Assembly: GCA_030390025.1 (NCBI GenBank)
Contig: CM059432.1
Location: 35,342,001-35,406,000, forward strand
Length of the DNA: 64,000 nucleotides
DNA from: Squalus acanthias
Taxonomy: Eukaryota
Direction of reading: 5' to 3'
In this document: positions 1 to 52,025 of the stretch, in pieces
How the letters are laid out: every line of letters starts with the position of its first letter
Position numbering within the stretch: the stretch's first letter is position 1
Notes under the pieces: generated by a model
Database searches by the model: none
Seen by the model: only the letters and a program-made list of their open reading frames with translations
What the model was told of the DNA's origin: nothing
Program-made: the position numbers and the translations under genes

Positions 1-29
1 TTTTCCCCCCGATTCCCATTGACTTCAGT

Positions 30-2013
30 TTTACTAGGGCTCCTTGATGCCAGACTCGGTCAAATGCTGCCTTGATGTCACTCTCACCTCACCTCTGGAA
101 TTCAGCTCCTTTGTCCATGTTTGGACCAAGGCTGTAATGAGGTCGGGAGCAGAGTGGTCTTGGCGGAACCCAAACTGGGCATCAGTGAGCAGGTTATTGG
201 TGAGTAAGTGCCGCTTGATAGCACTGTCGATGACACCTTCCATCACTTTGCTGATGATTGAGAGTAGACTGATGGGGCAGTAATTGGCCGGGTTGGATTT
301 GTCCTGCTTTTTGTGGACAGGACATACCTGGGCAGTTTTCCACATTGTCGGATAGATGCCAGTGTTGTAGCTGTACTGGAACAGCTTGGCTAGAGGCACG
401 GCTAGTTCTGGAGCACAAGTCTTCAGCACGATAGCCGGGATGTTGTCGGGGCCCATAGCCTTTGCTGTATCCAGTGAATTCAATTGGCTGAAGAATGGCT
501 TCTGTAATGGTGGGGACCTCGGGAGTAGGCCGATATGGATCAGCCTTGTCTTTTGCACTCACGTGCTGGGCTCCACCATCATTGAGGATGGGGATATTCT
601 TGGAGCCTCCTCCTCCCGTTAGTTGTTTAACGGTCCACCACCATTCACGACTGAATGTGACAGGACTGCAGAGCTTTGATCTGATCCGTTGATTGTGGGA
701 TCGCTTAGCCCTGTCTATAGCATGCTGCTTCCACTTTTTAGCATGCATGTAGTCCTGTGTTGCAGCTTCCCCAGGTTGGCACCTCATTTTTAGGTACGCC
801 TGATGCTGCTCCTGTACACTCGTTGTTGAACCAGGGTTGGTAATGGTACAGTGAGGGATATGCCGGGCCATGAGGTTACAGATTGTGGTGGAATACAATT
901 CTGCTGCTGGCCCACAGCGCCTCATGGATGCCCAGTTTTGAGCTGCTAGATCTGTTCTGAATCTATCCAATTTAGTACAGTGGTAGTGCCACACAACACG
1001 ATGGAGGGGGTCCTCAGTGTGAAGACGGGACTTCGTCTCCACAATGACTGTGCAGTGGTCACAGCTACCAATACTGTCATGGATAGATGCATCTGCGACA
1101 GGTAGATTGGTGAGGACGAGGTCAAGTAGGTTTTTCCCTCGTGTTGGTTTCTCTCACCACCTGTCACAGGCCCAGACTGGCAGCTATTGTCCTTCAGTAC
1201 TCAGCCACTCTTGGTGATGGACATTGAAGTCCCCACCCAGAGTACATTCTGTGCCCTTGCTACTCTCAGTGCTTCTTCCAAGTGGTGTTCAACATGGTGG
1301 AGTACTGATTCATCAGCTGAGGGAGGGCAGTAGGTGGTAATCAGCAGGTTGTTTCCTTGCCCATGCTTGACCTGAAGCCATGAGACTTCATGGGGTCTGG
1401 AGTCAATGTTGAGGACTCCCAGGGCCACTCCTTCCCGACTGTATACCACTGTGCCACCGGTGGGATAGGACATACCCAGGGATGGTGATGGAGGAGTTCG
1501 GGACATTGGCTGAAAGGTATGATTCTGTGAGTATGACTATGGCAGGCTGTTGCTTGACTAGTCTGTGGGACAGCTCTCCCAATTTTGGCACAAGTCCCCA
1601 GATGTTGGTGAGGAGGACTTTGCAGGGTTGACTGGGCTGGGTGTGCGTTGTCGTGTCCGTAGCCGGTGCCGAGGTTGATGCCGCGTGGTCCGTCCCGTTT
1701 CATTCTTATTATTTTGTAGCGGTTAGTTACAACTGAGTGACTTGCTGGGCCATTAAGTCACATATAGGCCAGACCAAGTAAGGATGGCAGATTTCTTTCC
1801 CTAAAGGACATTAGTGAACCAGATGGGTTTTTACGACAATCCGATAGTTTCATGGTTACCATTACTGATACTAGCTTTTTATTCCAGATTTACTTAATTA
1901 ACTGAATTTAAATTCCCCAGCTGCCGTGGTGGGATTTGAACTCACATCTACTGGATCATTAGTCCAGGCCTCTGGATTACTAGCCCAGTGACATTACCAC
2001 TACGCTACCGTAC
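30..2013 (-). mobile_element. Decayed LINE 'family A' (CR1/Jockey group), 5' half: tRNA-like head, APE endonuclease, start of RT
   Basis: APE motifs KVLLTNIWGL, IVILTESYL, GGTVVY, TYCPP; RT motifs KAMGPDNIP, PISLLSIISKVME, QFGFR; frameshifted; A/B-box head at about 1720-2013. Confidence 0.88.
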
Positions 2014-2219
2014 ACCCGACCTTCAATAGCAATACCATCGTCGAGTCTCCGAACATCAATATCTTGAGGGTCACCACTGACTTGAAGCCAAACTGGACTA
2101 GTCATATCAACACAGTGGCGACAAGAGCAGGGCAGAGCCTGGGTACTCTGCGATGCTTTGCTCAACTCTTGACCCCTTCAAAGTCTCTCCACCGTCTACA
2201 AGGCTTATGTCTGATAATT

Positions 2220-5762: not shown

Positions 5763-6430
5763 CTAAGTGAACCTCGCAATAATGAGGGCATCCCGGGCAG
5801 CAATGTGGGCCATTGGTGGTGCATTGCCCGTATCATCTTCCTCCTCCTCTGAATCGTCCAAAGAGGCTCTATGCTCTGTGCCTTGTTCCTCCTGCAGGTC
5901 CAAACCTCGCTGCTGCGCAATGTTGTGCAGAGCGCAGCACACCACAACCATTCTCCAAACCCTGGCTGGTGCGTACTGAAGGACGCCGCTAGATCTGTCC
6001 AGGCACCTGAAACGCATCTTCAGCATGCCGATGACACATCTGGTGGTCATATGGTATTCATTGTATCGCTCCTGGGCCTCATTCCTCAGTTTTCTGAGAG
6101 GTGTCATCAGCCACGTTTTAAGTGGGTATCCCTCGTCTCCAAGCAGCCAGCCGGTAATTCTGCTTCGAAGTGCAAAGAGATCAGGGAAGGTGGACTGCCG
6201 CAGGACAAAAGCATCTTGGCAGCTTCCCGGGAATCTTGCGCACACCTGCATAAACATCTTTTTGTGGTTGCACACTGATGGAGTGGAAGCCCTTGCGGTT
6301 GACTAACACTCCTGGGTCATCTATAGGTGCCTTAATTGAAATATCTGTGCAGTCGATGACGCCTTGTACCTGTGGGAAGCCAGCCAGAGCCGCAAACCCG
6401 AGCATCCGCGTCATCGCAGGAAAAGTTGAC
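5763..6430 (-). mobile_element. PIF/Harbinger DDE transposase remnant
   Basis: [59 protein letters not shown]; frameshift near 6280 and a deletion at the third catalytic residue. Confidence 0.92.
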
Positions 6431-17100: not shown

Positions 17101-17306
17101 GGAAACCAATTGTAGCATTTTGTGCTGACATTATGAGGGCAACTTTAACCAAACCTGCCCGTCGTGTACAACGCTGGTTTTACACCCGACCCTATTCTAC
17201 TCTCCATTAAAGTCACAACTTTCTGACTCAGGGAAAGTTGCTCCAACTGAGCCAAGGTTGACACAAATATCCCACATACTCCCCGACCAATCACCACCAT
17301 CTCTAC

Positions 17307-17417
17307 CTTAGTGTAGAAGGCTTCTCCTGCAGTTGGCTGATAATTGAGACGAGCGAAGGCCATGATAATGTTACAGAGCTGCACCTCAGTCATCTTGTCA
17401 CAGTGCTCAAATACATA
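17307..17417 (-). CDS. TBRG4: TBRG4 coding exon 5 (111 nt), FAST_1 region
   Basis: atacag|YVFEHCDKMTEVQLCNIIMAFARLNYQPTAGEAFYTK|gtagag; phase 0/0. Confidence 0.95.
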
Positions 17418-17672
17418 CTGTATGAGATAACACAACATGTTAATCCACCTGTATTGTTTGCCTTCTTCAAAACAGTTAAACACACAGAATCTCACTACTG
17501 TAACTAGAATCCGTCATTCTATATATATTTATAAACCATCTAAACCTATTAGCTTCCAGCCTGCAACTCACTCCAGGCCATCCATTATTCTATATATAAA
17601 CAATCCGAACCCCTCGATTCGATTCCAGCCTGTAACTCACTTCCAGGCATCCATTCTTCTATATGTAAACCA

Positions 17673-18317
17673 GAAACTTAATTGGACCAGCCACATAAAT
17701 ACTGTGGCAACAAGAGCAGGTCAGAGGCTAGGTATTCTGCGGCGAGTGTCTCACCTCCTGACTCCCCAAACCCTTTCCACCATCTACAAGGCACAAGTAA
17801 GGAGTGTGATGGAATACTCTCCACTTGCCTGGATGAGTGCAGCTCCAACAACACTCAAGAAGCTCGACACCATCCAGGACAAAGCAGCCGCTTGATTTGG
17901 CACCCCATCCACCACCTTAAACATCCACTCCCTCCACCACCGGCGTACCGTGGCTGCAGGGTGTACCATCTACAAGATGCACTGCAGCAACTCGCCAAGG
18001 CTTCTTCAGCAGCACCTCCCAAACCCGCGACCTCTTCCACCTAGAAGGACAAGGGCAGCAGGCATGGGAACACCACCACCTCCAAGTTCCCCTCCAAGTC
18101 ACACACCATCCTGACTTGGAAGTATATCGCCGATCCTTCATTGTCGCTGGGTCAAAATCCTGGAACTCCCTACCTAACAGCACTGTGGGAGTACCTTCAC
18201 CACACGGACTGCAGCGGTTCAAGAGGTGGCTCACCACCACTTTCTCAAGGGCAATTAGGGATGGACAATAAATGCTTGCCTTGCCAGCAACGCCCACATC
18301 CCATAAACGAATAAACA
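17673..18317 (+). mobile_element. LINE family A 3' fragment inserted in a 69-bp repeat array
   Basis: KLNWTSHINTVATRAGQRLG...YKAQVRSVMEYSPLAW; aaacca duplicated at 17667 and 18318. Confidence 0.88.
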
Positions 18318-18904
18318 AAACCATCTGAACCCCTTGATTAGATCCCAGCCTGTAACTCACTCTTGTGTACATTATATTCAATATAAACCATTCGAACCTC
18401 AGTTTGCTATATATAGCAGTATTTTTTAAAAGAGATAAAGGAGTTTTAGCAATAGTTACTAATGCACTTGGGTTACATCACATTCTGTGCCTTATCTGAC
18501 ATTAGTGAATTGCCTTGATTAAAACAGAGACACTTACTCTAAGAAATCACTCAGCAGATTTTTTAATTCCCCACCATACCTTAATCTGATTTGCGTAAAC
18601 TGCCCTTTTTAAAATATAAAGGTTCACTCTACACAAGCATTAGTTTAATTCTCCTCAGTCCCTGAATTAACTAGTGATGATGAATTTCATGTTCAAATTT
18701 CAGAGAGAGATGTTGTGTAAACCAGTAAAGCATCAAGATGGCCGTAAGAACAAGGAGAAAATTGACCAAGGATGAGCTTGTCCAATCAATGACCCTCCGT
18801 GTATGTGCATGCGCGGGCGGGCGCAGAAACCACTCCACAGGATGCACTTTCCCTTCCCAGTCTCCCTTGCTGATTGACAGGTACAGATGTGTGACAGAAT
18901 TTAC

Positions 18905-20690: not shown

Positions 20691-22039
20691 ACGGAATTTA
20701 TTTTCCAGATTAAGTCCTATTAACTAAAGCAGTTTAAACAAAGCAGGACAGGAATTAGAGGCATCAGGTTTTCTAGGCAAATCAACACAGGATTATGAAG
20801 GGAGTTGTAATTTGGAGTGTCAGCTTATATTTTTCTTCCTCGGTTTAATTTCAGAAGGGCACGTGAATTTCTATTCCCGTCGAGTGATATCATTGCTGGG
20901 AGCCGAACTACTGCCCCATTCCCACAATTTTTATTTTGGCACCCAATGTCGGCATCAAGCACTCTCAGATCAAGTACAGCATGGGTTAGATGCAGTTAAG
21001 CTCCTTGCTCATGGTAAATCAGACAAAACACTTTTATAAGGAGAGGAGTGTTACACAAGGTAACGTACAACATATTAGTAGCTGCTAAAGATGGAGCTAT
21101 GCCCTGTTAAGGCCACAAAGTCAAACTGTTGTTAAGTAAACAGAGGATCAGGTCAATCAGAGTTTAATTGTTTGGAGAGCGACCTACATAGGTTGGAAGA
21201 TGATTGTCAGTTTCAAACTGCAGCTCAGAAGCACCTAGCATTAAATGACTTGTTCTTTTCCTTTTTTATGATTGTTTTGTTTCTGTCTGATGTGTGACAG
21301 CTAGAGTATACGAATAAAATGCTCGCTGAATGTAATGTATGGCTCTGATGGAGTCCTTTCTCTTCCACCATCTGAGCATTACCAATTATTTTCTGTAACA
21401 TCCAACTTCTACCTGGTTACCCATTTCTCCTGAAGGCGCCGTCATGCTGGGGTAATTCATCCCAAGCCACCATTCTTCACCCAAGATTACAGCGAAGGCT
21501 TACCCTGTACTCATCCATTGTCCATACACATGCACTTACCAGCAGGAATCAGCTCATTTCTGTTCTCATTGGGCTCCTGCGCAGTACACTACACAAATTC
21601 CGACCTCCGCCACCTGCATGAAATACCGCTTGCCTATCACCCCGGTCCTCTTTGACCTCCTCCTTTTTGGTCCTTGTTTACAAGCCCTTCCTGGGGCTCA
21701 TTCAACCTGACATCTGCAACACCCTCCAACCCGAGGTCCAGCTCCCACTCTTCCAGCTTTGGCCCACCATATATTCCTCCCCACTTCCTTTGCTCCACCT
21801 TCAATTGGTATAACCTTTAGCCCTGTCACTTCCCCCTGGAATTCTCGTCTCACTATATCTCTCTCACCTTCAAAGGCCTTCTCAATAGGCTACCTATTTA
21901 ACTTGTGCCTCCAATCACCTCACCATACTCCTCTACTACTACCCGAGCAGGAACTTGGGATTTTTTGCTACTTCAAAAGCTGCTGGATAAGTACAGATTA
22001 TTGTAGCCTCCCTACCCCAGGGTCACCGATGTTTTTTTA

Positions 22040-22940
22040 AATTCGTTCATGGGATGTGGGCGTTGCTGGCATGGCCAGCATTTATTGCCCATCCCTAGTT
22101 GCCCTTGAGAAGGTGGTGGTGAGCCGCCTTCTTGAAACCGCTGTAGTCCGTGTGGTGAAGGTACTCCCACAGTGCTGTTAGGGGGGGACTTTCAGGATTT
22201 TGACCTAGCGACGATGAAGGAACGGCAATATACTTCCAAGTCAGGATGGTGTGTGACTTGGAGGTGGTGGTGTTCCCATGCGCCTGCTGCCTTTGTCCTC
22301 TAGGTGGTAGCGGTTGCCGGTTTGGGAGGTGCTGCTGAAGAAGCCTTGGCGAGTTGCTGCAGTGCATCTTGTAGATGGTACACACTGCAGCCACGGTACG
22401 CCGGTGGTGGAGGGAGTGAATGTTTAAGGTGGTGGATAGGGTGCCAATCAAGCGGGCTGCTTTGTCCTGGATGGTGTCAAGCTTCTTGAGTGTTGTTGGA
22501 GCTGCACTCATCCAGGCAAGTGGAGAGTATTCCATCACACTCCTTACTTGTGCCTTGTAGATGTTGGAAAGGCTTTGGGGAGTCAGGAGGTGAGACACTC
22601 GCCACAGAATACCCAGCCTCTGACCTGCTCTTGTTGCCACAGTATTTATGTGGCTGGTCCAGTTAAGTTTCTGGTCAATGGTGACCCCCAGAATGTTGAT
22701 AGTGGGGGATTCGGTGATGGTAATGCCGTTGAATGTCAAGGGGCGGTGGTTAGACTCTCGCTTGTTGGAGATAGTCATTGCCTGGCACTTGTGTGGTGCG
22801 AATGTTACCTGCCACTTATCAGCCCAAGTCTGAATGTCGTCCAGGTTTTGTTGCATGCGGGCATGGACTGCTTCATTATCTGAGGAGTTGCGAATGGCAC
22901 TGAACACTGTGTAGTCATCAGCGAACATCCCCATTTTTGA
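22040..22940 (-). mobile_element. LINE family A 3' part (RT FADD to end)
   Basis: GMFADDYTVF...WADKWQVTFAPHKC...LGVTIDQKLNW. Confidence 0.9.
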
Positions 22941-23066
22941 CCTGGTGCACTGTAATGCCCCAACCGCTGCCCTAGATACGACCAACTAACATAACACAGC
23001 ATAGGGGGGTGGAACTTGGCTTTAAAGAGAAAGCTCCAATGTCTGTGTTAGTCTTTGCTACCTCAC

Positions 23067-26829: not shown

Positions 26830-27230
26830 TATATAACACATCATGTGTTACTGGGTGCATCCCTCCAGTATATAACACACCACGTGTTATAGAGTGCAAC
26901 GCTCCAGTATGTAACAGTGTGCGCTACATAAAATTTACAGCGTAGAAACAGGCCATTTGGCCCAACTAGTCTATGCTAGCGTTTATGCTCCACACGAGCC
27001 TCCTCCCACTATATTTACTTCATATCAACATATTCTTCTATTCCTTTCTCCCTCATGTACTTATCTAGCTTCCCTCTAAATGCATGTAATACTTCAGTAT
27101 ACAACACACCATGTGTTCCTGGGTGCAACACTCCAGTATATAACGCGTATATCATACAATAGCAGATCTATATATAACTTGTGTGTTACTGAGTATAACA
27201 TAACACACTATTACTGGGGTGCAACATTCT
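26830..27230. repeat. Degenerate ~39-bp tandem repeat with an inserted CR1 tail (about 26925-27085)
   Basis: Recurring cagtatataacac...gtgttactgggtgcaac. Confidence 0.6.
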
Positions 27231-27269
27231 TGTGTTGATGATAAAACACACTACGTGGGTCGTGTGTAC

Positions 27270-27593
27270 CTTATCCTCCAGTCTGTCCATCAGTGCACTC
27301 GACAGGTGTCCGAGCTTCGTCATCAACGTGGCCACAGTCTTTGCATCTGTGACCTCAGTCCACCGCAGCTCCACATTTTTTATTATGTCGCTAAGTAGCA
27401 CTTTCTGCCCATCTGTCCGTGCATAGCTGGTGTAGTAGTCGGCCAGCGAGGTGAGGTTTTTAAAGGTCAAGCGCCTCAACCGCCAGTGAATCTCGTTTTC
27501 AACGGACCGTAGGACGCGGTTGTTGGCATCCAGTCTGATCACAAAGAGGCTCCGCAGCAGGCTGACCAGGTTCCCATTCCACACTGCAGAAAT
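27270..27593 (-). CDS. TBRG4: TBRG4 coding exon 2 (324 nt)
   Basis: tttcag|ISAVWNGNLVSLLRSL...SVENEIHWRLRRL...ELRWTEV...LMDRLEDK|gtacac; phase 0/0. Confidence 0.95.
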
Positions 27594-28169
27594 CTGAAAG
27601 AAAAACCGTTTAAACCAGAGGTCACACAACCAGTTGGGTGTGAGGGCCAGGATCAGCAGGAGATCCGTCTTGGGAATATGCTGTAGTACTTCATTTCCCC
27701 ACTGGGTGGCAGTATAACTGTGAAATGGTTGATGTTATATTGCACGACCTGATTTCAGCCCAGAGGGAAGCGCATACAGCCTCACCACCCACAGTATCCA
27801 ACTGCTTCTCTTTTACCCCCAGAGTCCTTACATACACTTTGTGACATTGCTGTACAGTGTGTTACACGGGTACTTACAAGAGAATATAATGACACACTGA
27901 GGTTATTGGCACAATGAAGAGTAAGCTGGCAGCCGCTGCTTTGGGAGTCTGGGTAATTTGGTGCTGTTGCTTAGATTCAGAAGAGTCAAGGAAATTTACT
28001 GGGTCCTAACCATACAGAGAGATCACGCAGGGCTGGGTCACTGCCCTACGTAAGTCTTTCACAGCCCAGTCGAGCAGAAAGAATCCCTGATAGTTTGTGA
28101 ATATGTTCTTAATTAAACCATTCTTACCATCTTGTGGGACAGTCCGACAGGGAGAGAATGCAAGAACCG

Positions 28170-30155
28170 AAGGGAGTGTGAGTGTGCATGTGTGTGTGAG
28201 AGTAAGAGAGCGTGATAGTGAGCAAGAGAGAGACAGCGTGAGTGTGTGTGGGAGGGTGAGAGAGTGTGACAGAAAGTGTGAGGGTGAGTGTGTGAAAGAG
28301 AGTGAGTGTGAGAATGTATGCAAGTGAGAGTGAGAGAGAGGGGGAGAGAGAGTGAGTGAGGGAGAGAGTTAGAGACAAGAGCGAGCGAGAGACGAGCGAG
28401 TGAGACAGAGCGAGCGAGAGACAGAGCGAGCGAGAGACAGAGCGAGCGAGAGACAGAGCGAGCGAGAGACAGAGCGAGCGAGAGACAGAGCGAGCGAGAG
28501 ACAGAGCGAGCGAGAGACAGAGCGAGAGACAGAGCGAGCGAGAGACAGAGCGAGCGAGACAGAGCGAGCGAGAGACAGAGCGAGCGAGAGACAGAGCGAG
28601 CGAGAGACAGAGCGAGCGAGAGACAGAACGAGCGAGAGACAGAACGAGCGAGAGACAGAACGAGCGAGAGACAGAGCGAGAGACAGAGCGAGAGACAGAC
28701 AGAGCGAGCGAGACAGAGCGAGCGAGACAGAGCGAGCGAGAGACAGAGCGAGAGACAGAGCGAGCGAGAGACAGAACGAGCGAGACAGAACGAGCGAGAC
28801 AGAGCGAGCGAGACAGAGCGAGCGAGACAGAGCGAGCGAGACAGAGCGAGCGAGACAGAGCGAGCGAGAGACAGAGCGAGCGAGAGACAGAACGAGAGAC
28901 AGAGCGAGCGAGAGACAGAACGAGCGAGACAGAGCGAGCGAGAGACAGAGCGAGAGACAGAGCGAGCGAGAGACAGAACAAGTGAGAGACAGAGCGAGCG
29001 AGAGACAGAGCGAGAGACAGAACGAGTGAGAGACAGAGCGAGCGAGAGACAGAACGAGTGAGAGACAGAACGAGTGAGAGACAGAACGAGTGAGAGACAG
29101 AGCGAGCGAGAGACAGAGCGAGCGAGAGACAGAGCGAGCGAGAGACAGAGCGAGCGAGAGACAGAACGAGCGAGAGACAGAGCGAGCGAGAGACAGAGCG
29201 AGAGACAGAGCAAGCGAGAGACAGAACGAGTGAGAGACAGAGCGAGCGAGACAGAACGAGCGAGACAGAGCGAGCGAGAGACAGAGCGAGCGAGAGACAG
29301 AGCGAGCGAGAGACAGAGCGAGCGAGAGACAGAACGAGCGAGAGACAGAGCGAGCGAGAGACAGAGCGAGCGAGAGACAGAGCGAGAGACAGAGCGAGAG
29401 ACAGAGCGAGAGACAGAGCGAGCGAGAGACAGAGCGAGCGCGCGAGAGACAGAGCGAGAGCGCGAGAGAGAGCGAGAGCGCGAGAGACAGAGCGAGAGCG
29501 CGAGAGACAGAGCGAGAGCGCGAGAGACAGAGCGAGAGCGCGAGAGACAGAGCGAGAGCGCGAGACAGAACGAGAGCGCGAGAGGGAGCGAGAGAGAGCG
29601 AGAGCGCAAGAGACAGAGCGAGCGAGACAGAGCGAGCGAGAGACAGAGTGAGCGAGACAGAGAGCGAGCAAGAGACAGAGCGAGCGAGAGACAGAGCGAG
29701 CGAGACAGAGCGAGCGAGACAGAGCGAGCGAGAGACAGCGAGCGAGAGACAGAGCGAGCGAGAGACAGAGCGAGCGAGACAGAGACAGAGCGAGCGACAG
29801 AGCGAGCGTGAGCCAGAGCGTGAGCGAGAGACAGAGCGAGCGTGAGCCAGAAGCGAGCGAGAGACAGAGCGAGCGAGAGCCAGAGCGCGAGCGAGAGCCA
29901 GAGCGCGAGCGAGAGACAGAGCGAGCGTGAGCCAGAGCGCGAGCGAGAGACAGAGCGAGCGTGAGCCAGAGCGCGAGCGAGAGACAGAGCGAGCGACAGA
30001 CAGAGCGAGCGACAGACAGAGCGAGTGAGAGACACAGTGAGTGTGAGACAGAGTGAGCGAGAGTGTGCGTGTGAGAGAGAAACAGTGAGAATGTGAGAGT
30101 GAGGGAGTGTGAGTGAGTGTGTGAGAAATAAAGTGTGTGAGAGTGTGTGAGAGTG
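28170..30155. repeat. Compound microsatellite, core (GAGACAGAGCGAGCGA)n, with GT/GA flanks
   Basis: Directly visible. Confidence 0.97.
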
Positions 30156-30216
30156 TAATTATTCATGTGAGTCTCCAACCGCATCCTGATCCTGACTTCC
30201 CCACACATTTTTAAAA

Positions 30217-30583
30217 ATTCATTCTAGGGAAGTGGGTGTCGCTGACAAGGCCGGCACTTATTGCCTTTCCCTAGTTGCCCTACTACAATGGTGTGGCTTG
30301 CTTGGCCATTTCGGAGAACAATTACAAGTCAACCATGTTGGTGTGGGACTGGAGTCACATATAGGCCAGACCGGGTAAGGACATCACATTTCCATCCCGA
30401 AAGGACATTAGTGAACCAGCTGGGTTCTTATGACAATCTGACAACTTCATGGTCACTTTTAGTACTACCAACTTTTTATTTCCAGATTTTTTAAAACTGA
30501 ATTCAAATTCTCAAACTGCCATGATTTGATCTCGCATTCTCTGGATTACTAGTCCAGTAACATAACCACTACACTACCGTACC
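30217..30583 (-). mobile_element. Family-A-derived SINE-like element (tRNA-like head plus LINE A tail)
   Basis: Head matches 1720-2013; tail matches the LINE A 3' end at 22040-22105. Confidence 0.8.
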
Positions 30584-30689
30584 AATCATCCTTCCGAAAC
30601 CAATGCACCGAAAACACAACATAATATTCTACTGTTGTTAACGACTCTTTTGACGAGCACAAATTTCACACGAAAAGAAAACCACTGAC

Positions 30690-31106
30690 CTGGCTGTCGA
30701 CGGTGTTCAACAGATGCTGGAAGCGCCCGTCTCCCGCGACACCCTGCGTCTCCAGTTTCTGCTCCACCACCTGGCGACACACACGGATGAGCAGCGCGGC
30801 CGCTTGGTTCCCGGTGACCTTTCGGCCCGAGGGAACCTGCAGGAGCTCCTCCGTGCTCGAGGCCGACTCGATCAGCTCGTCCACTTTCGTACGTTCCGGC
30901 TGGTGGGTGTAGGTCTGCTCGGCGGCGGGAGATGAGTCGGGCGGGTGACAGCGAGCAGACGTGTGGACGCCAGCCAGCAACGCCAGTGACTGGTGTGGTT
31001 CTGCCCTGCTCCGTCTGCAGGGAGTTAGCACGGTGGCAGGGGCCGGCACGGTGAGGAATGAAGCACCCAGGTGCCGCGTGCATCTGCGGATAAGCCGAGC
31101 CGCCAT
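30690..31106 (-). CDS. TBRG4: TBRG4/FASTKD4 coding exon 1 (417 nt), N-terminal mitochondrial presequence-like region
   Basis: ATG at 31106, MAARLIRRCTRHLGASF...FQHLLNTVDSQ, donor CAG|gtcagt. Likely acceptor ttttgctttag| gives exon start 31159 (53 nt 5'UTR). Confidence 0.9.
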
Positions 31107-31239
31107 CTTTGTTGCCAAGAAGTGGATAGAAACACCTTTAACGTCACATCTCACCACACCTAAAGCAAAAACAAATTGCGATGGCGACATTAAAATGAAT
31201 ACATGTTTAGAGTAATGGCTCATCGTGTTAAAATGTCTC

Positions 31240-31825
31240 ATAGTACTTAAAATAGGAACAGGAGGCAGCCATTCAGCCCTTCAAGCCTGTTCTGCCAATC
31301 AATCAGATATTGGCTGATCTGTACCTTAACTCCATGTAGTCTTGTTTGCTTCGATATCCCTTGATACCCTTACCTAATGAAAATCTATCGATCTCAGTCT
31401 TGAAAATTTCAATTAACCCAGCATGCACAGCCTTTTTAGAGAAGGCGGAAAGAGTTCCAGATTTCCACTACCCTTTGTATTAAAAAGTCCTTCTGATTTC
31501 CCTCCTAAATGGCCGAGCTCTAATTTTAAGATTATGTCTCCTTGTTTTCTATTCCCCCACCAGAGGAAATAGCTCATCAGTATCCACTCTATCGAATTCC
31601 TTTTTCATTTTAAACACCTCGATTAGATCACCCCTCCACCTTATAAACTCAAGGGAAGACAAGCCAGGTTTTATGCAACCTGTCCTCATAATTTAATCCT
31701 TTAAGCTCTGGTATCATTTTGGTGAATCTGTGCTGTACTGCCTCCGAGAGCAACATCTCTTTCCTGATGTGCAGTGCCCAAAACTCATGCAATACTCCAG
31801 ACGGGGTCTGACCAAGGCTTCATAC
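31240..31825 (-). mobile_element. CR1 3' fragment, followed by a DeuSINE (about 31830-32170)
   Basis: Similar to the reverse complement of 16330-17100. Confidence 0.8.
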
Positions 31826-32401
31826 AATCTGACATAAGTAGTGTGCAGCCAGTCTCCTTCTGCAAACTCCTACACACAGCAGAAATGAATGACCAGTTAA
31901 TTTGTTTATCGTTGCTTTTACCGAGGGAACAATGTTGGCCAGGACACCAGGAGAGCTCCTGTGTTCTGCTTCGAATAATACAATGGGATCTTTAATGTCC
32001 ACCCGGTAGGTAGACGGGGCCTTGGTTTAACGCCTCATCCAAAAGACAGCATCTCCAACAATGCTGCACTCCCTCAGTATTGCACTAGAGTATCAGCCTA
32101 GACTATGTGCTCAAATCCTGAAGTGAGGCTTGAAATGACAACCATCTGACCCAGGGTTCTCCCACTAAGCCAAACTGGTGTATGAACTAAAGCTTCAGGG
32201 TGTTCAGGAGTGAGCAACAGTGAAGCAATGGCATGGCCCAGGGACAGCAATGGAGTGAAATGATTAAGATAACCATTGCACATGTGCTGTGTGGCTGAAT
32301 AAAATAATAAGCAGAATAGAAAATGTAAATCTGAAAGACCACTTCCACAGGGGCTGGAGCATAAGAGGGTACAGGCTCAAAGGGCTGATGTTATTTTTTT
32401 C

Positions 32402-32780
32402 ATTCTCAGGATGTGGGTATCGCTGGCAAGGCCAGCATTTTTGCCCATCCCTAATTTCAACTGAGTGTCTTGCTAGGCTACTTCAGACAGCAGTGAAGAG
32501 TCACCCACGTTGGTGTAGGTCTGGAATCACATATAGGCCAGACCAAGTGAGGATGGCAGATTTCCTTCCCTAAAGGACAATAGTGAACCAGTTGGGTATT
32601 TACAGCAATTCAACAGCTTCATGGTCACTTTTACTGATACCAGCTTTTTATCTCCAGCTATTTATTTTAAAAAACAGAATTCAAATCCACAAACTATCAT
32701 GTTGGGTTTTGAACGCATGTTCCATGGATTATTAGTCCAGGCCTCTAGATTACTGGTTCAGCAACACAACCACTACGCTA
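32402..32780 (-). mobile_element. Family-A-derived SINE-like element
   Basis: gcccatccctaatt tail joined directly to the caactgagtg head segment. Confidence 0.8.
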
Positions 32781-38502: not shown

Positions 38503-40325
38503 CATAAGAACATAAGAAATAGGAGCAGGAGTTGGCCATTTGGCTCTTCGAGCCTGCTCCGCCATTCAATAAGATCATGGCTGATCTGATCTTGGCCTCA
38601 ACTCCACTTTCCTGCTCGCTTCCCATAACCCTTGATTCCTGTTTTTAAAAAATCTGTCTATCTCCGCCTTGAATATATTCACTGACTCAGCCTCCACAGC
38701 TCTGTGGGGTAGAGAATTCCAAAGATTCACGATTCTCTGAGAGAAGAAATTCCTCCTCATCTCCGTTTTAAATGGGCGACCCCTTATTCTGAAACTATGC
38801 CCCCTAGTTCTAGATTCCCCCACGAGGGGAAACATCCTCCCTGCATTTACCCTGTCAAGCCCCCTCAGAATCTTATATGTTTCAATAAGATCACCTCTCA
38901 TTCTTCTAATCTCCAATGAGTATAGGTCCAACCTGCTCAACCTTTCCTCATAAGACAACCCCTTCATCTCTGGAATTAACCTAGTGAACCTTCTCTGAAC
39001 TGCCTCCAATGCAAGTATATCCTTCCTTAAATATGGAGACCAAAACTGTACGCAGTACTCCAGGTGTGGTCTCACCAACGGCCTGTACAGCTGTAGCAAG
39101 ACTTCCCTACTTTTATACTCCACCCCCCCTTGCAATAAAGGCCAATATTCCATTTGCCTTCCTAATTACTTGCTGTACCTGCATGCTAACTTTGTGTTTC
39201 ATGTATGAGGACACCCAGATCCCTCTGTAGCGCAGCATTCTGTAGTCTCTCTCCATTTAAATAATATTTTGCTTTTCTATTCTTCCTACCAAAGTGGATA
39301 ACCTCACATTTTTCCACATTATACTCCATCTGCCAATTTTTTGCCCACTCAATTAACCTATCTATATCCCTTTACAGACTCTTTCTGTCCTCTTCACAAC
39401 TTGCTTTCCCACCTATCTTTGTATCGTCAGCAAATTTGGCTACAGTACACTCGGTCCCTTCATCCAAGTCATTAATATAGATTGTAAACAGCTGAGGCCC
39501 CAGCACTGATCCCTGTGGCACCCCACTAGTTACAGTTTGCCAACCTGAAAATGACCCATTTATCCCGACTCTCTGTTTTCTGTTAGTTAGCCAATCCTCT
39601 ATCCAATCTGATATATTACCTCCAACACCATCTTGTGCAGTAACCTTTTATGTGGCACTTTATCGAATGCCTTTTGGAAATCCAAATACACCACATCCAC
39701 TGGTTCCCCTTTATCCACCCTGCTCATTACATCCTCAAAGAACTCTAATAAATTTGTCAAACACGATATCCCTTTCATAAAAGCATGTTGACTCTGCTTG
39801 ATTGTATTTTGATTTTCTAAATGTCCTGCTACTACTTCCTTAATAATGGATTCGAACATTTTCCCAATGACAGATGTTAGGCTAACTGGCCGATAGTTTC
39901 CTGCTTTCTGTCTCCCGCCTTTCTTGAATATGGGCGTTACATTTGCGGTTTTCCAATCCGCTGGGACCTCTCTAGAATCCAGGGAATTTTGGAAGATTAC
40001 AACCAATGCATCCACTATCTCTGCAGCCACTTCTTTTCAGACCCTAGGATGCAGGCCATTAGGTGCAGGGGACTTGTCAGCCTTTAGTCGTATTAGTTTG
40101 CCAAGTACTTTTTCTCTAGTTAGAGTGATTGTTTTAAGTTCCTCCCTTTCGCCCCTTGATTTTCCACTATTATTGAGATACTTTTAGTGTCTTCTACCAT
40201 GCAGACAGATACAATATATTTGTTCAAAGTCTCTGCCATTTCCTTGTTTCCCATTATTAATTTCCCAGTCTCCCAGGGACCAACATTTACTTTAGCTACT
40301 CTCTTCCTTTTTATATACTTGTATC
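38503..40325 (-). mobile_element. CR1 ORF2 3' half
   Basis: NYRPVSLTSV, DFQKAFDKVPH, RPHLEYCVQFWSP. Confidence 0.93.
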
Positions 40326-40389
40326 CTCCGCACGCCCCCCCCCCCCCCCCCCCGGATCCTGTTGATATCCGCAACCCCTGCCCCGATGC

Positions 40390-41665
40390 TCGTAGCACCT
40401 CCACCCACTCTCCCTGGCACTGCTGGTATCCCCACCCCCTCTCCCTGCTGGTATCCCCACCCCCTCTCCCTGGTGCTGCTGGTATCCCCACACCCTCCCC
40501 TCGGCGCTGCTGGTATCCCCACCCCCTCTCCCTGGTGCTGCTGGTATCCCCACCCCCTCTCCCTGGCTCTGATGGTATCCCCACCCCCTTCCCCCGGCGC
40601 TGCTGGTATCCCCACCCACTCTCCCTGGCTCTGCTGGTATCCCCACCCCCTCTCCCTGGTGCTGCTGGTATCCCCACCCCCCTCCCTGGCTCTGCTGGTA
40701 TCCCCACCCCCTCTCCCTGGCTCTGCTGGTATCCCCACCCCCTCTCCCTGGCACTGCTGGTATCCCCACCCCCTCTCCCTGGCGCTGCTGGTATCCCCAC
40801 CCCCTCTCCCTGGTGCTGCTGGTATCCCCACACCCTCCCCTTGGCGCTGCTGGTATCCCCACCCCCTCTCCCTGGTGCTGCTGGTATCCCCACCCCCCTC
40901 TCCCTGGCTCTGATGGTATCCCCACCCCCTCTCCCTGGCACTGCTGGTATCCCCAACCCCCTCTCCCTGGCGCTGCTGGTATCCCCACCCCCTCTCCCTG
41001 GCGCTGCTGGTATCCCCACCCCCTCTCCCTGGCACTGCTGGTATCCCCACCCCCTCTCCCTGGCGCTGCTGGTATCCCCACCCCCTCTCCCTGGCGCAGC
41101 TGGTATCCCCACCCCCTTCCCCCGGCGCTGCTGGTATCCCCACCCCCTCTCCCTGGCGCAGCTGGTATCCCCACCGCCTTCCCCCGGCGCTGCTGGTATC
41201 CCCACCCCCTCTCCCTGGCTCTGCTGGTATCCCCACCCCCCTCTCCCTGGCGCTGCTGGTATCCCCACCCCCTCTCCCTGGTGCTGCTGGTATCCCCACC
41301 CCCTGGCGCTGCTGGTATCCCCACCCCCTTCCCCGCTGGTATCCCCACCCCCTCTCCCTGGTGCTGCTGGTATCCCCACCCCCTCTCCCTGGTGCTGCTG
41401 GTATCCCCATCCCCTCTCCCTGGCACTGCTGGTATCCCCACCGCCTTCCCCCGGCGCTGCTGGTATCCCCACCCCCTCTCCCTGGCTCTGCTGGTATCCC
41501 CACCCCCTCTCCCTGGCGCTGCTGGTATCCCCACCGCCTTCCCCCGGCGCTGCTGGTATCCCCACCCCCTCTCCCTGGTGCTGCTGGTATCCCCACCCCC
41601 TTCCCCTGCTGGTATCCCCACCCCCTTCCCCTGCTGGTATCCTCCTTCCCCTTGGTATCACCCCT
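40390..41665. repeat. GC-rich ~31-bp minisatellite (ctgctggtatccccaccccctctccctggNN)n
   Basis: About 40 visible units; degenerate relatives at 32930-33170. Confidence 0.95.
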
Positions 41666-42044
41666 ATTTGTCCTATGAATGGGTCCCAGCTGAATGGCGA
41701 CTGCATGTTGAGATGGTGCCACTCTGTGCAGGAAGCCCTGAATGGAAAAGAAACGAGGGGCAAGGGCAAAGGTGTGATGGGAAAGGCTCACAGCTAGTGG
41801 CCGGTTTGGTTACCATGACTAATGACCCAGACCGGTCTTTCAAATGCCGATCAATCCGTTGTGCATTTCCTATTAATGATGAGGATTTATTTCCGATACC
41901 ATAACACAACATTTTTGGGAAAGCGATCTTAAAACAGTCTCACAGAAAGAAGATGCAGCACCAGTTCATAGACATAAACAGACTGGTGAATTGACTAGTC
42001 ATATGGCAGATCTAATTTAAAGCAGAAGTGCAGACAAGTGTTGA

Positions 42045-48810: not shown

Positions 48811-50544
48811 TAAGGAGGAGGATTTTAAATTTGAGGTGCAAGGGTCCAGGGCCAATGTAGGTCAGCAAGGGCAGGGGAGATAGGCAAGTGGGAGTTGGTG
48901 TAGGTTAGGATATAGGTAGTATAGTTTTGGATGAGCTGAAGTTTACAGAGGGTGGAGGATGAGAAGCCGGCCAGGAGAGTATTGGAGTAATTGAGTTGGA
49001 GGTGACAATGGCATGGATATAGGTTTCAGTGGAAGATTGCCAAAAAGAGTCTAGGCTCAGATGGTTTACATCCCAAAATACTGAAATAGCAGAGGTACTA
49101 ACCATATTTTTCCATTTGGAAACAGAAATTATGCCAAAGGACTGGAGTGTGGCAAATAAGGAGATCATTATTTGCAGTTAGTTAGCGCCTTTGACGTCCT
49201 TGGAATGTCCCAAATGTTACAGCCCTGTTCCAGAAATGGATAAACCAGGTAAATACAGGACAATTAATCACACCTTAATTATGAGTACAGGTCTAGGGTC
49301 CATAATACGAGATATTAGTGAACCTTGAGAAAGTCATGGGTTAATCAAGAACAGTCCCCATGGATTTAAAGACACTATATAAATGCAAGTCACTGTTGTT
49401 GGATCTGTAACAAATAAAAATAGATAATGCTGGAAACACACAGGTCGGGCAGCATCTATGAGAGAGGAAGGTAGGGTTAATGTTTCATGTCAATATCCTT
49501 TCTCTCTCTACAGATGCTGCCTGACCTTTTGGATGCTTCCAGCATTTTCTGTTTTTATTTCAGATTTTCCAGCATCTGCAGCACTTTGCCTTTATGGATT
49601 TGTAAAGGGCAGGTTGCGCTTGTCTAATTAAAAAAAAATCAAGTGTGTAGATAAAGGAAATGTAATAGCTGCTGATTATCTGGATTTTAAAAATTTGCTA
49701 TTATTTTTAAATTATTTGTTCATTGGATGTGAACGTCGCTGGCAATATTGAAGTTAATGCCCATCCCCTAGTTGCCATGAGAAGGTGGCACTGCGCCTTT
49801 TCCTTGAACTTCTGCAGTCTTTGTGGTGATGGTACTCCTACAATGGTGGTAAGTAGGGAGTTCCGGGATATTTACCCAGCGAAGATGAGGGATCGGCCTT
49901 GTGAGTCTAAATCAGGATGATATGTGACTTCGAGGGGAACTTGGAGGTGATGGTGTTCCCACGACATTGCTGCCCTTGTCGTTCACGGTGGTGAAGGTCG
50001 AAGCAAAAGATTTTCAGACATAGTTCCATTTAAACAACCTGTTGCAAAAATGAAGGAGCTTGATGTTAAATAGAATGTCGCTGTATAGATAGAAAGAATA
50101 AAAAGCAAAGAATACTGGTAAATGGATGTTTTTGCATTGGCCAGGATGTGGTTATGGTACACTCCAGGGGTCTCTGCTGGCTCCTGTTTTCATATATATA
50201 TACTGGCTTAATTAGGCATGGCAAACTATCAGGAAGAATGCAAGAAATTGCTAAAGGTGTAGTGGCAGATGCAGTTCAATACAGATGTGAGGTAATTCAT
50301 TTTAGGAAGCACAACAGTGCAACAAGGTAGATATTGGAAATGTTAAGATCTATAAAAGAGCTTGCTTTTATATAGCACCTTTCACGACCTCAGGATGCCA
50401 CAAAGCGCTTTACAACCAATGAAGCACTTTTGAAGTGCAGTCACTGTTGTAATTTGGGAAACGGGCCAGCTAATTTGCACATAGCAAGGTCCCACATTCA
50501 GCAATGATACTGAGCACCTTCATTTTATCAGCAAGCCCTTTTTA

Positions 50545-52025
50545 AAATTCAACTTGGGATATGGGCATCGCTAGCAAGGCCAGCATTTATTGTCCATCCC
50601 TAGTTGCCCTCGGGAAAGTGGTGGTGAGCTGCCTTCTTCAACCGCTGCTATCCGTGTGGTGAAGCTATTCCCAGTGTTGTCAGCTATGGATTACCAGGAT
50701 TTTGACCCAGCAATGATGAAGGAATGGCGATGTATGTCCAAGTCAGGACAGTGAGAGATTTGGGAGGGGAACGTACAGGTGATGGTGTTCCCATGGGCCT
50801 GCTGTGCTTGTCTTTCTAGGTAATAGAGGTCACAGGTTTGGGAGGTGCTGTCAAAGAAGCTTTGGCGAGATGCTGCAGTACATCCTGTGGATAGTACACA
50901 CTGCAGACACGGTACTCTGGTGGTGGAAGGAGTGGAAGTTTACGGTGGTGGATGGGCTATTGATCAAGTGGACTGTTTTGTCCTGGATGGTGTCGAGCTT
51001 CTTAAGTGTTGCAGCTGCACCCATCCTGGCACTCCTGACTCCTACATGGCATTTATCAAAAGCCTTTTGAAAATCCATATAGACCACATCCACTATACTT
51101 CCTTTTTCAATGCACTCTGTTGTTTCCTCACTTACTTTTATCCCAAACTAACTAGGGATATTTAAAATTTTCAGATACTACTTGCCTTTCACAGATTTGT
51201 GCTGGCTGTCCTTAATTAATCCATGCCTTTCTGAATAAGTATTAACCCATACTATGACCTCCAGAAGCTTATCCATTATTGTTAGGCTGACTGGCCAAGA
51301 GGTACCCAATTTATTACTTTCTCCATTTTTGAACAGAACTATTAAATTGGCAACCCTGCAATCTTCTAGAACAACTTCCATATCCAACAATGTTTGAAAG
51401 ACTGTGGTCAGAGCCTCTACTATTACATCTCTGACTTCCCTCAGCATTCTAGGATGTAACCATCAGGGCCTAATGCCCTTTCCACTTTGAGCTCCATCTT
51501 TTACGGTATCACTTCCTTATCTTTAGTCATCCTATCTAATAGCCACAGCTCCTCCTCTTGTACCCTCTTGATTCCCACTACCAAACTCCACCATAAAGAT
51601 TGAACAGGTTGGGGTTTTTTTCTTTAGAAAAGTGAAGTCTTAGAGGTGACTTGATAGAGGTCTTTAAAATGGTTTGGACAGGGTAGATCTGGAGAGAATG
51701 TTTCCACTTGTGGGAGAATCCAAAACTAAAGGCCATAAATAAAATATAGTTACTAATACATCCAATAGAGAAATAAGGAGAAATTTATTTACTCAGAGTG
51801 GTTAGAATATGGAACTTGCTACCACAGGAAATGGTTGAGGCAAATAGCTTAGATGCTTTCAAAAGGAAACTAGACGAGTACGAGAGAAAAGGGAATAGGA
51901 TACGTTGAAAGGCTGAGATGAAGCAGATGGAATGGGAGGAGACTCGTGGAGTATAAACACCAGCATAGACCAGTTGGGCCGAATGGCCTGTTTCTGTGCT
52001 GTATATTCTATGTAATTCTATGTAA
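50545..52025. mobile_element. Cluster: LINE A 3' fragment (-, 50545-51030), old CR1 (-, 51030-51500), CR1 3' end (+, 51600-52025)
   Basis: LKKLDTIQDK, DVVYMDFQKAFDK and CR1 tail motifs. Confidence 0.8.

Follow-up and report, generated by a model that had tools for sequence, protein, structure and literature searches.

RNA polymerase III (Pol III) normally makes only non-coding RNA. In the available parts of Kojima (PMC5786205), LINEs are described as Pol II transcripts and SINEs as elements that cannot encode a protein. The shortest Pol III terminators given in the accessible part of PMC8466645 are TTTT (T4) and TVTTT. The Zenon LINEs of elasmobranchs, hagfish and coelacanth are described, in the sections available of Stuart et al. 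(2026; PMC13343379), as all lacking ORF1 and all ending in poly(A), a tail unique among CR1-group elements, and the 5′ ends of lepidopteran Zenon were reported, in the accessible part of PMC6740152, to have no tRNA homology. Type 6-like IRESs in non-LTR elements appear in the available portion of PMC3894237 as speculation only. In the literature outside Repbase, Dfam and subscription papers, no description of a Pol III-transcribed autonomous LINE or of a Zenon head was found. The available main text of PMC13343379 gave no match to "tRNA" or "polymerase III", its supplement of 400-letter consensuses gave none to "tRNA", and no mention of terminator avoidance or of an AUG-less start was found in the accessible parts of that paper.

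The window analyzed here is the whole 64,000-nt stretch of Squalus acanthias DNA at CM059432.1:35,342,001-35,406,000 (GCA_030390025.1), to which all positions refer. Its minus-strand positions 2017-1 hold the first 2 kb of a LINE, a decayed, full-length copy 3.3 kb long, which extends ~1.08 kb beyond the left edge of the window and there carries a stem-loop, AATAAA and poly(A). From 5′ to 3′, the LINE consists of a tRNA-derived head, a body of ~200 nt, a single endonuclease-RT frame and poly(A). An initial annotation, made from the sequence alone, had placed a minus-strand LINE at 30..2013; the element and its strand stand, whereas the real head start lies at ~2017 rather than 2013. The features of this family are the following:

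1928..2017, minus strand: tRNA-derived head (Rfam tRNA, 23 bits; 5′ junctions of 40 copies; tRNA-Gln alignment)
1997..2007, minus strand: A box TAGCGTAGTGG, starting 9 nt from the 5′ end
1932..1941, minus strand: B box GTTCAAATCC, 65 nt past the A-box start
1721..1927, minus strand: spacer and conserved body, common to LINE and SINE (near-identical by eye in five elasmobranch consensuses); this copy has a ~45-nt deletion near 1756
1738..1752, minus strand: hairpin with a 7-nt loop centered on AGC (weak candidate for an anticodon mimic)
1718..1729, minus strand: 5′ border of the AUG-less frame, with an in-frame stop at 1729-1727 and a conserved GCT at 1720-1718 (per-copy translations)
1701..1703, minus strand: ATG of the initial annotation, out of frame with the endonuclease
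1..1720, minus strand: decayed single ORF with Arg-rich leader, APE endonuclease, linker and RT start, running on leftward
2018..2204, plus strand: inverted fragment of the RT region of the same LINE, adjoining the head
17669..18325, plus strand: 5′-truncated 3′ copy of the same LINE
22030..22985, minus strand: 5′-truncated 3′ copy of the same LINE (C-terminal half of RT)

The A box, the B box and the ATG read in the initial annotation are present at 2007-1997, 1941-1932 and 1703-1701, respectively, and the pieces at 17673-18317 and 22040-22940, which it had assigned to the same family, were found to be 92% alike. The start of the APE domain, KVLLTNIWGL, lies at 1621-1592 on the minus strand. 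The Pfam domains Exo_endo_phos and RVT_1 were matched on better-kept copies and on pieces of the window.

By sequence comparison, this family is the catalogued elasmobranch Zenon (CR1-Zenon) of the available parts of PMC13343379, in line with the earlier remark that it may already be catalogued. It combines APE and RT in one ORF, lacks ORF1 and has a poly(A) tail. Published consensuses from the accessible supplement were compared by eye over the first 400 letters of each. Over these letters SquAca_Zenon-1, with a length of 3.3 kb, is essentially identical to the 5′ majority of the genomic copies. Head and body start all seven elasmobranch rows (SquAca_Zenon-1/-2/-3, CarCar, ScyCan, RhiTyp and HypSab_Zenon-1), which represent five species, four sharks and one ray, and such a start was not seen in the two hagfish rows and one coelacanth row within the same span. 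Across the elasmobranch species in this material, the A box is conserved and the region between the boxes varies; three species have a perfect GGTTCGAATCC B box, and that of the stingray consensus is degenerate. No T4 was seen by eye in the first 400 letters of the seven rows. Since Zenon LINEs as a whole are known to lack ORF1, its absence is ordinary here, and the head is the unusual part.

The head appears to be tRNA-Gln-like, Gln being the sole tRNA type that was aligned with it. Its alignment score against two genomic tRNA-Gln genes was 52-54, compared with a mean of 28 and a maximum of 46 for shuffles. The Rfam tRNA model covers 2008-1928 at a score below its gathering score of 29, and ARAGORN called no tRNA in the head. 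The anticodon arm was found to be duplicated, 21 nt (1988-1972 and 1967-1951). Elsewhere in the genome, a tandem array of the tRNA-Gln motif with ~1.19-kb spacing occupies C21:3336223-3486159 onward and contains at least 94 of the 157 genome matches.

Copies were searched for in the 3.7-Gb genome. With head and ORF together as the query, 7,176 candidates were obtained, and 40 of them were scored and retrieved. In these copies similarity begins sharply at GGGAACGG, the 5′ end of the majority sequence, and stops at poly(A) ~3.3 kb downstream. Their majority sequence contains one stop-free frame of 971 codons, which holds the endonuclease and RT domains, and a 54-nt 3′ UTR with AATAAA ~45 nt upstream of the poly(A). 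Individual LINE copies are decayed, at ~4-5% from the majority. A second search was made with the endonuclease alone, avoiding selection for the head. The head was present from within the first 20 nt at 29 of the 39 other loci (27 by BLAST, 2 by flanking sequence, both used in place of a strict box regex, which undercounts with 25 A and 22 B boxes); nine of the others are truncated inside the head or body and one at the ORF edge. Full-length copies are thus consistently headed, the remaining 10 being 5′-truncated, and a chance insertion of a SINE beside a LINE is ruled out by this search. The claim that no room is left for an ORF1 also holds, because the 5′ region measures 335 nt from the 5′ end to the frame border and none of the 39 endonuclease-picked loci has another 5′ ORF. 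Where a few loci had upstream sequence in common, it turned out to be the 3′ part of this family in inverted orientation, a segmental duplication or unrelated short repeats. Exact 23-mer matches in the genome number 3,877 for the endonuclease start, 9,908 for the body and 36,530 for the 3′ ORF. No target-site duplications above control were detected in 20 full-length copies, and no relatives were found in viral contigs, by protein or by body motif. The idea of an older Zenon subfamily with a different head was dropped, since a query with 50530-51040 gave only uniform 83-84% matches.

An inverted piece of the same LINE longer than 150 nt is present at 10 of 79 loci (L031, which is 2018-2204 of the window, L076, L077, L078, L079, L082, L042 and others). 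Locus L076 has a clean twin-priming layout, forward over 6-1532 and inverted from 1533, and at several other such loci a 3′ fragment is joined head-to-head with a 5′ end. Such 5′ inversion is best known from mammalian L1.

The window also contains SINEs that share both ends of the LINE:

30208..30582, minus strand: older SINE, with the 3′ tail of the LINE attached to head and body
32387..32780, minus strand: second SINE of the same build

The SINE 3′ part corresponds to the last ~80 nt of the LINE. The SINE is a high-copy element, and its exact junction pattern occurs 184 times in the genome, in several junction types, and those seen end before the GCT. The head majority of 30 pattern-picked SINEs differs from that of the LINE in 3 of 254 columns, and that of 25 older SINEs in 26 of 252. 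Median divergence is 4.2% for the LINE, 7.1% for the pattern-picked SINEs and 8.4% for the older SINEs, in sets that were picked differently. The younger SINE head tracks the LINE, which favors repeated internal deletion of the headed LINE or head exchange; at the first origin, the LINE may have captured the head from a SINE, or the SINEs may derive from the headed LINE. A motif search for a known conserved SINE domain (Deu, Meta, V or CORE) in the body gave no assignment: the longer body motifs were absent from the searchable supplements of PMC4824008 (all but one file) and PMC5786205, and short body motifs gave only chance-like matches in V-SINE/RTE rows.

Other features surround these repeats. 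A fragment of a DDE_Tnp_4 (Harbinger/PIF-type) transposase is located at 5763-6302 on the minus strand (E 8e-20), and an exon with a FAST_1 domain match at 17145-17513 on the minus strand (E 9e-8). Exon-like frames at 27186-27734 and 30666-31280 (minus strand) have no Pfam match and are possibly exons as well. In view of the FAST_1 exon, a FAST-kinase-domain gene probably contains the repeats in its introns. Long stretches of simple or tandem repeat at 28100-30220 and 40120-41900, a GA-rich microsatellite and a GC-rich minisatellite inside a CR1, yield spurious long frames.

The depletion of T4 described in the initial annotation was confirmed by counting. The sense strand of 30-2013 contains no T4, compared with 3.0 expected (base shuffle, P 0.044); 17673-18317 and 22040-22940 also contain none, and are uninformative alone because only 0.7 and 1.0 are expected in them. 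The neighboring CR1s are T4-rich, as had been claimed, with 13 and 8 in pieces of ~2.5 kb and 1-4 in shorter pieces. The family majority has no T4+ or TVTTT on its sense strand, and the two together occur 19 times on the antisense strand. For the sense strand, base shuffling predicts 7.0 (P 0.001), synonymous-codon shuffling 3.4 (P 0.016) and a first-order Markov model 3.3 (P 0.035). This combined count was devised after T4 alone had come out weak in the majority, with P values of 0.018, 0.12 and 0.25 under the same three nulls, and it amounts to a test of one ancestral sequence because the copies are not independent. Against codon-shuffled controls, a comparison that the initial annotation had proposed for T4, the combined count is significant and T4 alone is not. 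TTT runs in the frame number 5, compared with 11.2 expected (P 0.005), whereas runs of A, C and G match the codon-null expectation. Thus, the A-richness of LINE sense strands, to which part of the depletion had been ascribed, is not the cause of the loss of T runs. Avoidance of Phe at the amino-acid level was likewise rejected, the Phe content being low and no outlier (z -1.5; 5 of 92 homologues equal or lower).

Among genomic segments, which share ancestry, the observed/expected ratio of T4 was 0.09 for Zenon (162 segments), 1.44 for CR1 (94) and 0.86 for L2 (10). In metagenomes 80 relatives were found, not necessarily all Zenon, and 47 of them, whose frames reach 700 codons or more, were compared. 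Each of these 47 has at least 7 T4 and at least 13 terminators, and their TT observed/expected ratio is 0.90-1.36 versus 0.70 in the Zenon majority; they are distant (28-43% identity), T-richer (24-36% versus 19% T) and may lack their 5′ ends. A B-box regex matched upstream of none of the 47. ARAGORN found no tRNA at 45 metagenome loci, a result that is uninformative because the program also misses the shark head. Of the tails that could be parsed, 11 of 46 in the LINE (79 copies) and 9 of 28 in the SINE (55 copies) hold T4+ runs, located between the 3′ stem and the A tail. These runs are variable (e.g., L033, L040, L053 and L070), resembling the elongation of terminators in T+ SINEs, and absent from the majority, and according to the accessible part of PMC8466645 T-runs before an A tail can also arise after insertion. 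The sense-strand counts support avoidance of Pol III terminators beyond what composition explains.

The start of the frame was found to differ from that proposed. The initial annotation had the ATG at 1703 leading into KVLLTNIWGL, but in this copy the two are out of frame, at an offset of 97. Among 40 copies, 22 could be parsed; relative to the endonuclease, this ATG is in phase 2 in 15 of them, phase 1 in 3 and phase 0 in 4, and in the majority it opens an overlapping 48-codon frame. It was therefore rejected as the start codon; where the triplet was readable, in 49 copies (60 of 79 were parsed), 17 have ATA and 5 have ACA instead. Eight ATGs lie ahead of the frame in the majority, whose long frame reaches its first in-frame ATG only downstream of the endonuclease. 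Translated copy by copy (60 of 79 parsed), the sequence runs from a stop through 3-4 codons and an Arg-rich leader into KVLLTNIW. The conserved GCT is followed by ACG in 26 copies, ACA in 10 (the copy of the window also has ACA), ATG in 5 and ATA in 1, the codon being unread in 18; this spread is expected from CpG decay of ACG. By eye, in the available consensuses of five species, the stretch from GCT to the leader is open in the endonuclease frame with length changes of whole codons; the ACG is not conserved as such, and every main consensus has the out-of-frame ATG. In several full-length relatives inspected, a similar basic leader opens with Met. Internal initiation at a non-AUG codon would be the simplest reading of this arrangement. 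Because the out-of-frame ATG recurs in the main consensuses of all five species, an AUG start there followed by a -1 frameshift may offer an alternative route.

By sequence, the family has this layout, a constant head and a SINE that shares its ends, and it lacks an ORF1, sense-strand T4 and TVTTT, and any in-frame AUG ahead of the endonuclease. We lean toward the explanation that Zenon source elements are transcribed by Pol III from the internal A and B boxes and translated cap-independently from a non-AUG start. TFIIIC/B would drive initiation at the GGG of the 5′ end; selection would have removed terminators, allowing Pol III to cross 3.3 kb and halt at a T-run in the tail or flank. On the resulting uncapped RNA with its upstream AUGs, ribosomes would be loaded internally via the body and start at or next to the GCT/ACG codons. 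The protein would then bind the 3′ stem-loop and insert the RNA by target-primed reverse transcription. It would also move the SINE, which most likely derives from the headed LINE by repeated internal deletion. Against Pol III transcription stand the chance-level P values of T4 alone under the codon and Markov nulls, the AATAAA before the poly(A), which also suits Pol II, the degenerate stingray B box in the available consensus, and the precedent of RTE-1_DAn, which has a tRNA-like sequence without a Pol III claim in the accessible part of PMC5786205. Internal initiation has against it a 5′ region that folds no better than shuffles (z -0.32 and -0.37, in folding z-scores of about -0.3 to -0.5 overall).

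Alternatively, a captured SINE 5′ end may act as a Pol II promoter, or ride along with one, so that a capped RNA is polyadenylated at the AATAAA and the T-poverty stems from a different bias against U-rich stretches, such as one that keeps out splicing or decay signals. LINEs are generally taken as Pol II transcripts in the available text of PMC5786205, the 3′ UTR contains AATAAA, T4 alone is within chance under two nulls, and the sense strand is T-poor overall, at 19%. However, the A and B boxes are kept across the sharks and the ray in the consensuses available, the depletion affects only T and only the sense strand and includes TVTTT, the 8 upstream AUGs with no in-frame AUG suit cap-dependent scanning poorly, and lepidopteran Zenon 5′ ends, in the accessible part of PMC6740152, are without tRNA homology. 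On balance, this explanation appears rather unlikely.

In a second alternative, Pol III would make only the template, as for a giant SINE, and the protein would be supplied in trans by some copies, through spliced transcripts or Pol II read-through, with no IRES. The head, the terminator avoidance and the missing AUG would then be explained without translation of uncapped RNA, and SINEs with the same ends are mobilized in trans as well. However, the 971-codon frame is open in the majority, and in the available consensuses of five species the leader reads in frame from one shared GCT, its length changing only in multiples of three; both suggest translation in cis from a fixed start, and supply in trans seems improbable.

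Returning to Pol III transcription with cap-independent translation, the body was considered as a candidate IRES. Of the 79 LINE copies, 43 were readable at the hairpin at 1738..1752, and 41 of these retain the central AGC of the loop, with a variable base before it; this AGC is complementary to the in-frame GCT 17 nt beyond the stem. The hairpin is part of the MFE fold in 13 of 24 intact copies. AGC and GCT(A) allow 3-4 pairs, and background hairpins have a complement within 28 nt in 14 of 30 cases for 3 nt and 5 of 30 for 4 nt. One other body stem has an A-U/G-U/G-C series across species, a covariation judged by eye. Rfam IRES models gave no match at E<=10 or E<=5. The AUUU (SLIV) and CAGCC (SLV) loops were absent from the body by eye, which excludes only types 6a/6b, as types 6c-6f are without some of these loops. 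A non-AUG start at the frame border, a feature of type 6, is seen in the sequence as a stop with no in-frame AUG before the endonuclease. A dicistrovirus-like IRES in the body is thus weakly supported. An HDV-like ribozyme in the body was rejected: no Rfam match was obtained, and cleavage there would remove the head that the copies retain. The fullest version, in which a tRNA promoter, a 3.3-kb terminator-free strand, a factor-independent IRES and an AGC mimic pairing with GCT to set the frame form one Pol III unit, is decidedly improbable; if true, it would place a type 6-like IRES in a cellular genome.

Elasmobranch Zenon is an abundant LINE that carries a SINE-type promoter in sharks and a ray, with a coding strand free of Pol III terminators. 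If the Pol III explanation is true, the boundary between LINE and SINE would be blurred and a natural protein-coding Pol III transcript would exist, and the family would allow a direct test of the translation of uncapped retrotransposon RNA and of the origin of bipartite SINEs.

Several described systems share some of these features. The dicistrovirus IGR (type 6) IRES, in the available parts of PMC12221177, bioRxiv 10.1101/2024.04.17.590008 and PMC4132737, combines a non-AUG start with an adjacent anticodon-like hairpin in a PKI arrangement, which the candidate hairpin of Zenon resembles; unlike that IRES, Zenon has 3-4 possible pairs, not above background. RTE-1_DAn and elements related to it, as presented in the accessible part of PMC5786205, are also LINEs with a tRNA-like sequence, described without a Pol III claim, and belong to the RTE clade. 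B2, Dip and Ves, which are T+ SINEs, in the available part of PMC8466645, resemble Zenon in their internal A and B boxes, a 5′ end at about tRNA position 1, no internal TTTT or TVTTT, AATAAA before the A tail and T-runs in some tails. Like tRNA-derived SINEs, the Zenon LINE has a head with A and B boxes; unlike them, it is neither short nor non-coding, being 3.3 kb long and encoding endonuclease and RT in its 971-codon frame, whereas its 380-nt partner is both. The bipartite SINEs/SIDEs of Kojima (2018; PMC5786205) and Persaeus, derived from lepidopteran Zenon (PMC6740152), likewise consist of LINE 5′ and 3′ ends in the parts of these papers available. In the bipartite SINEs/SIDEs described there, the tRNA head is added to the non-autonomous derivative, and in Persaeus it is absent, whereas in shark Zenon it is carried by the coding LINE.
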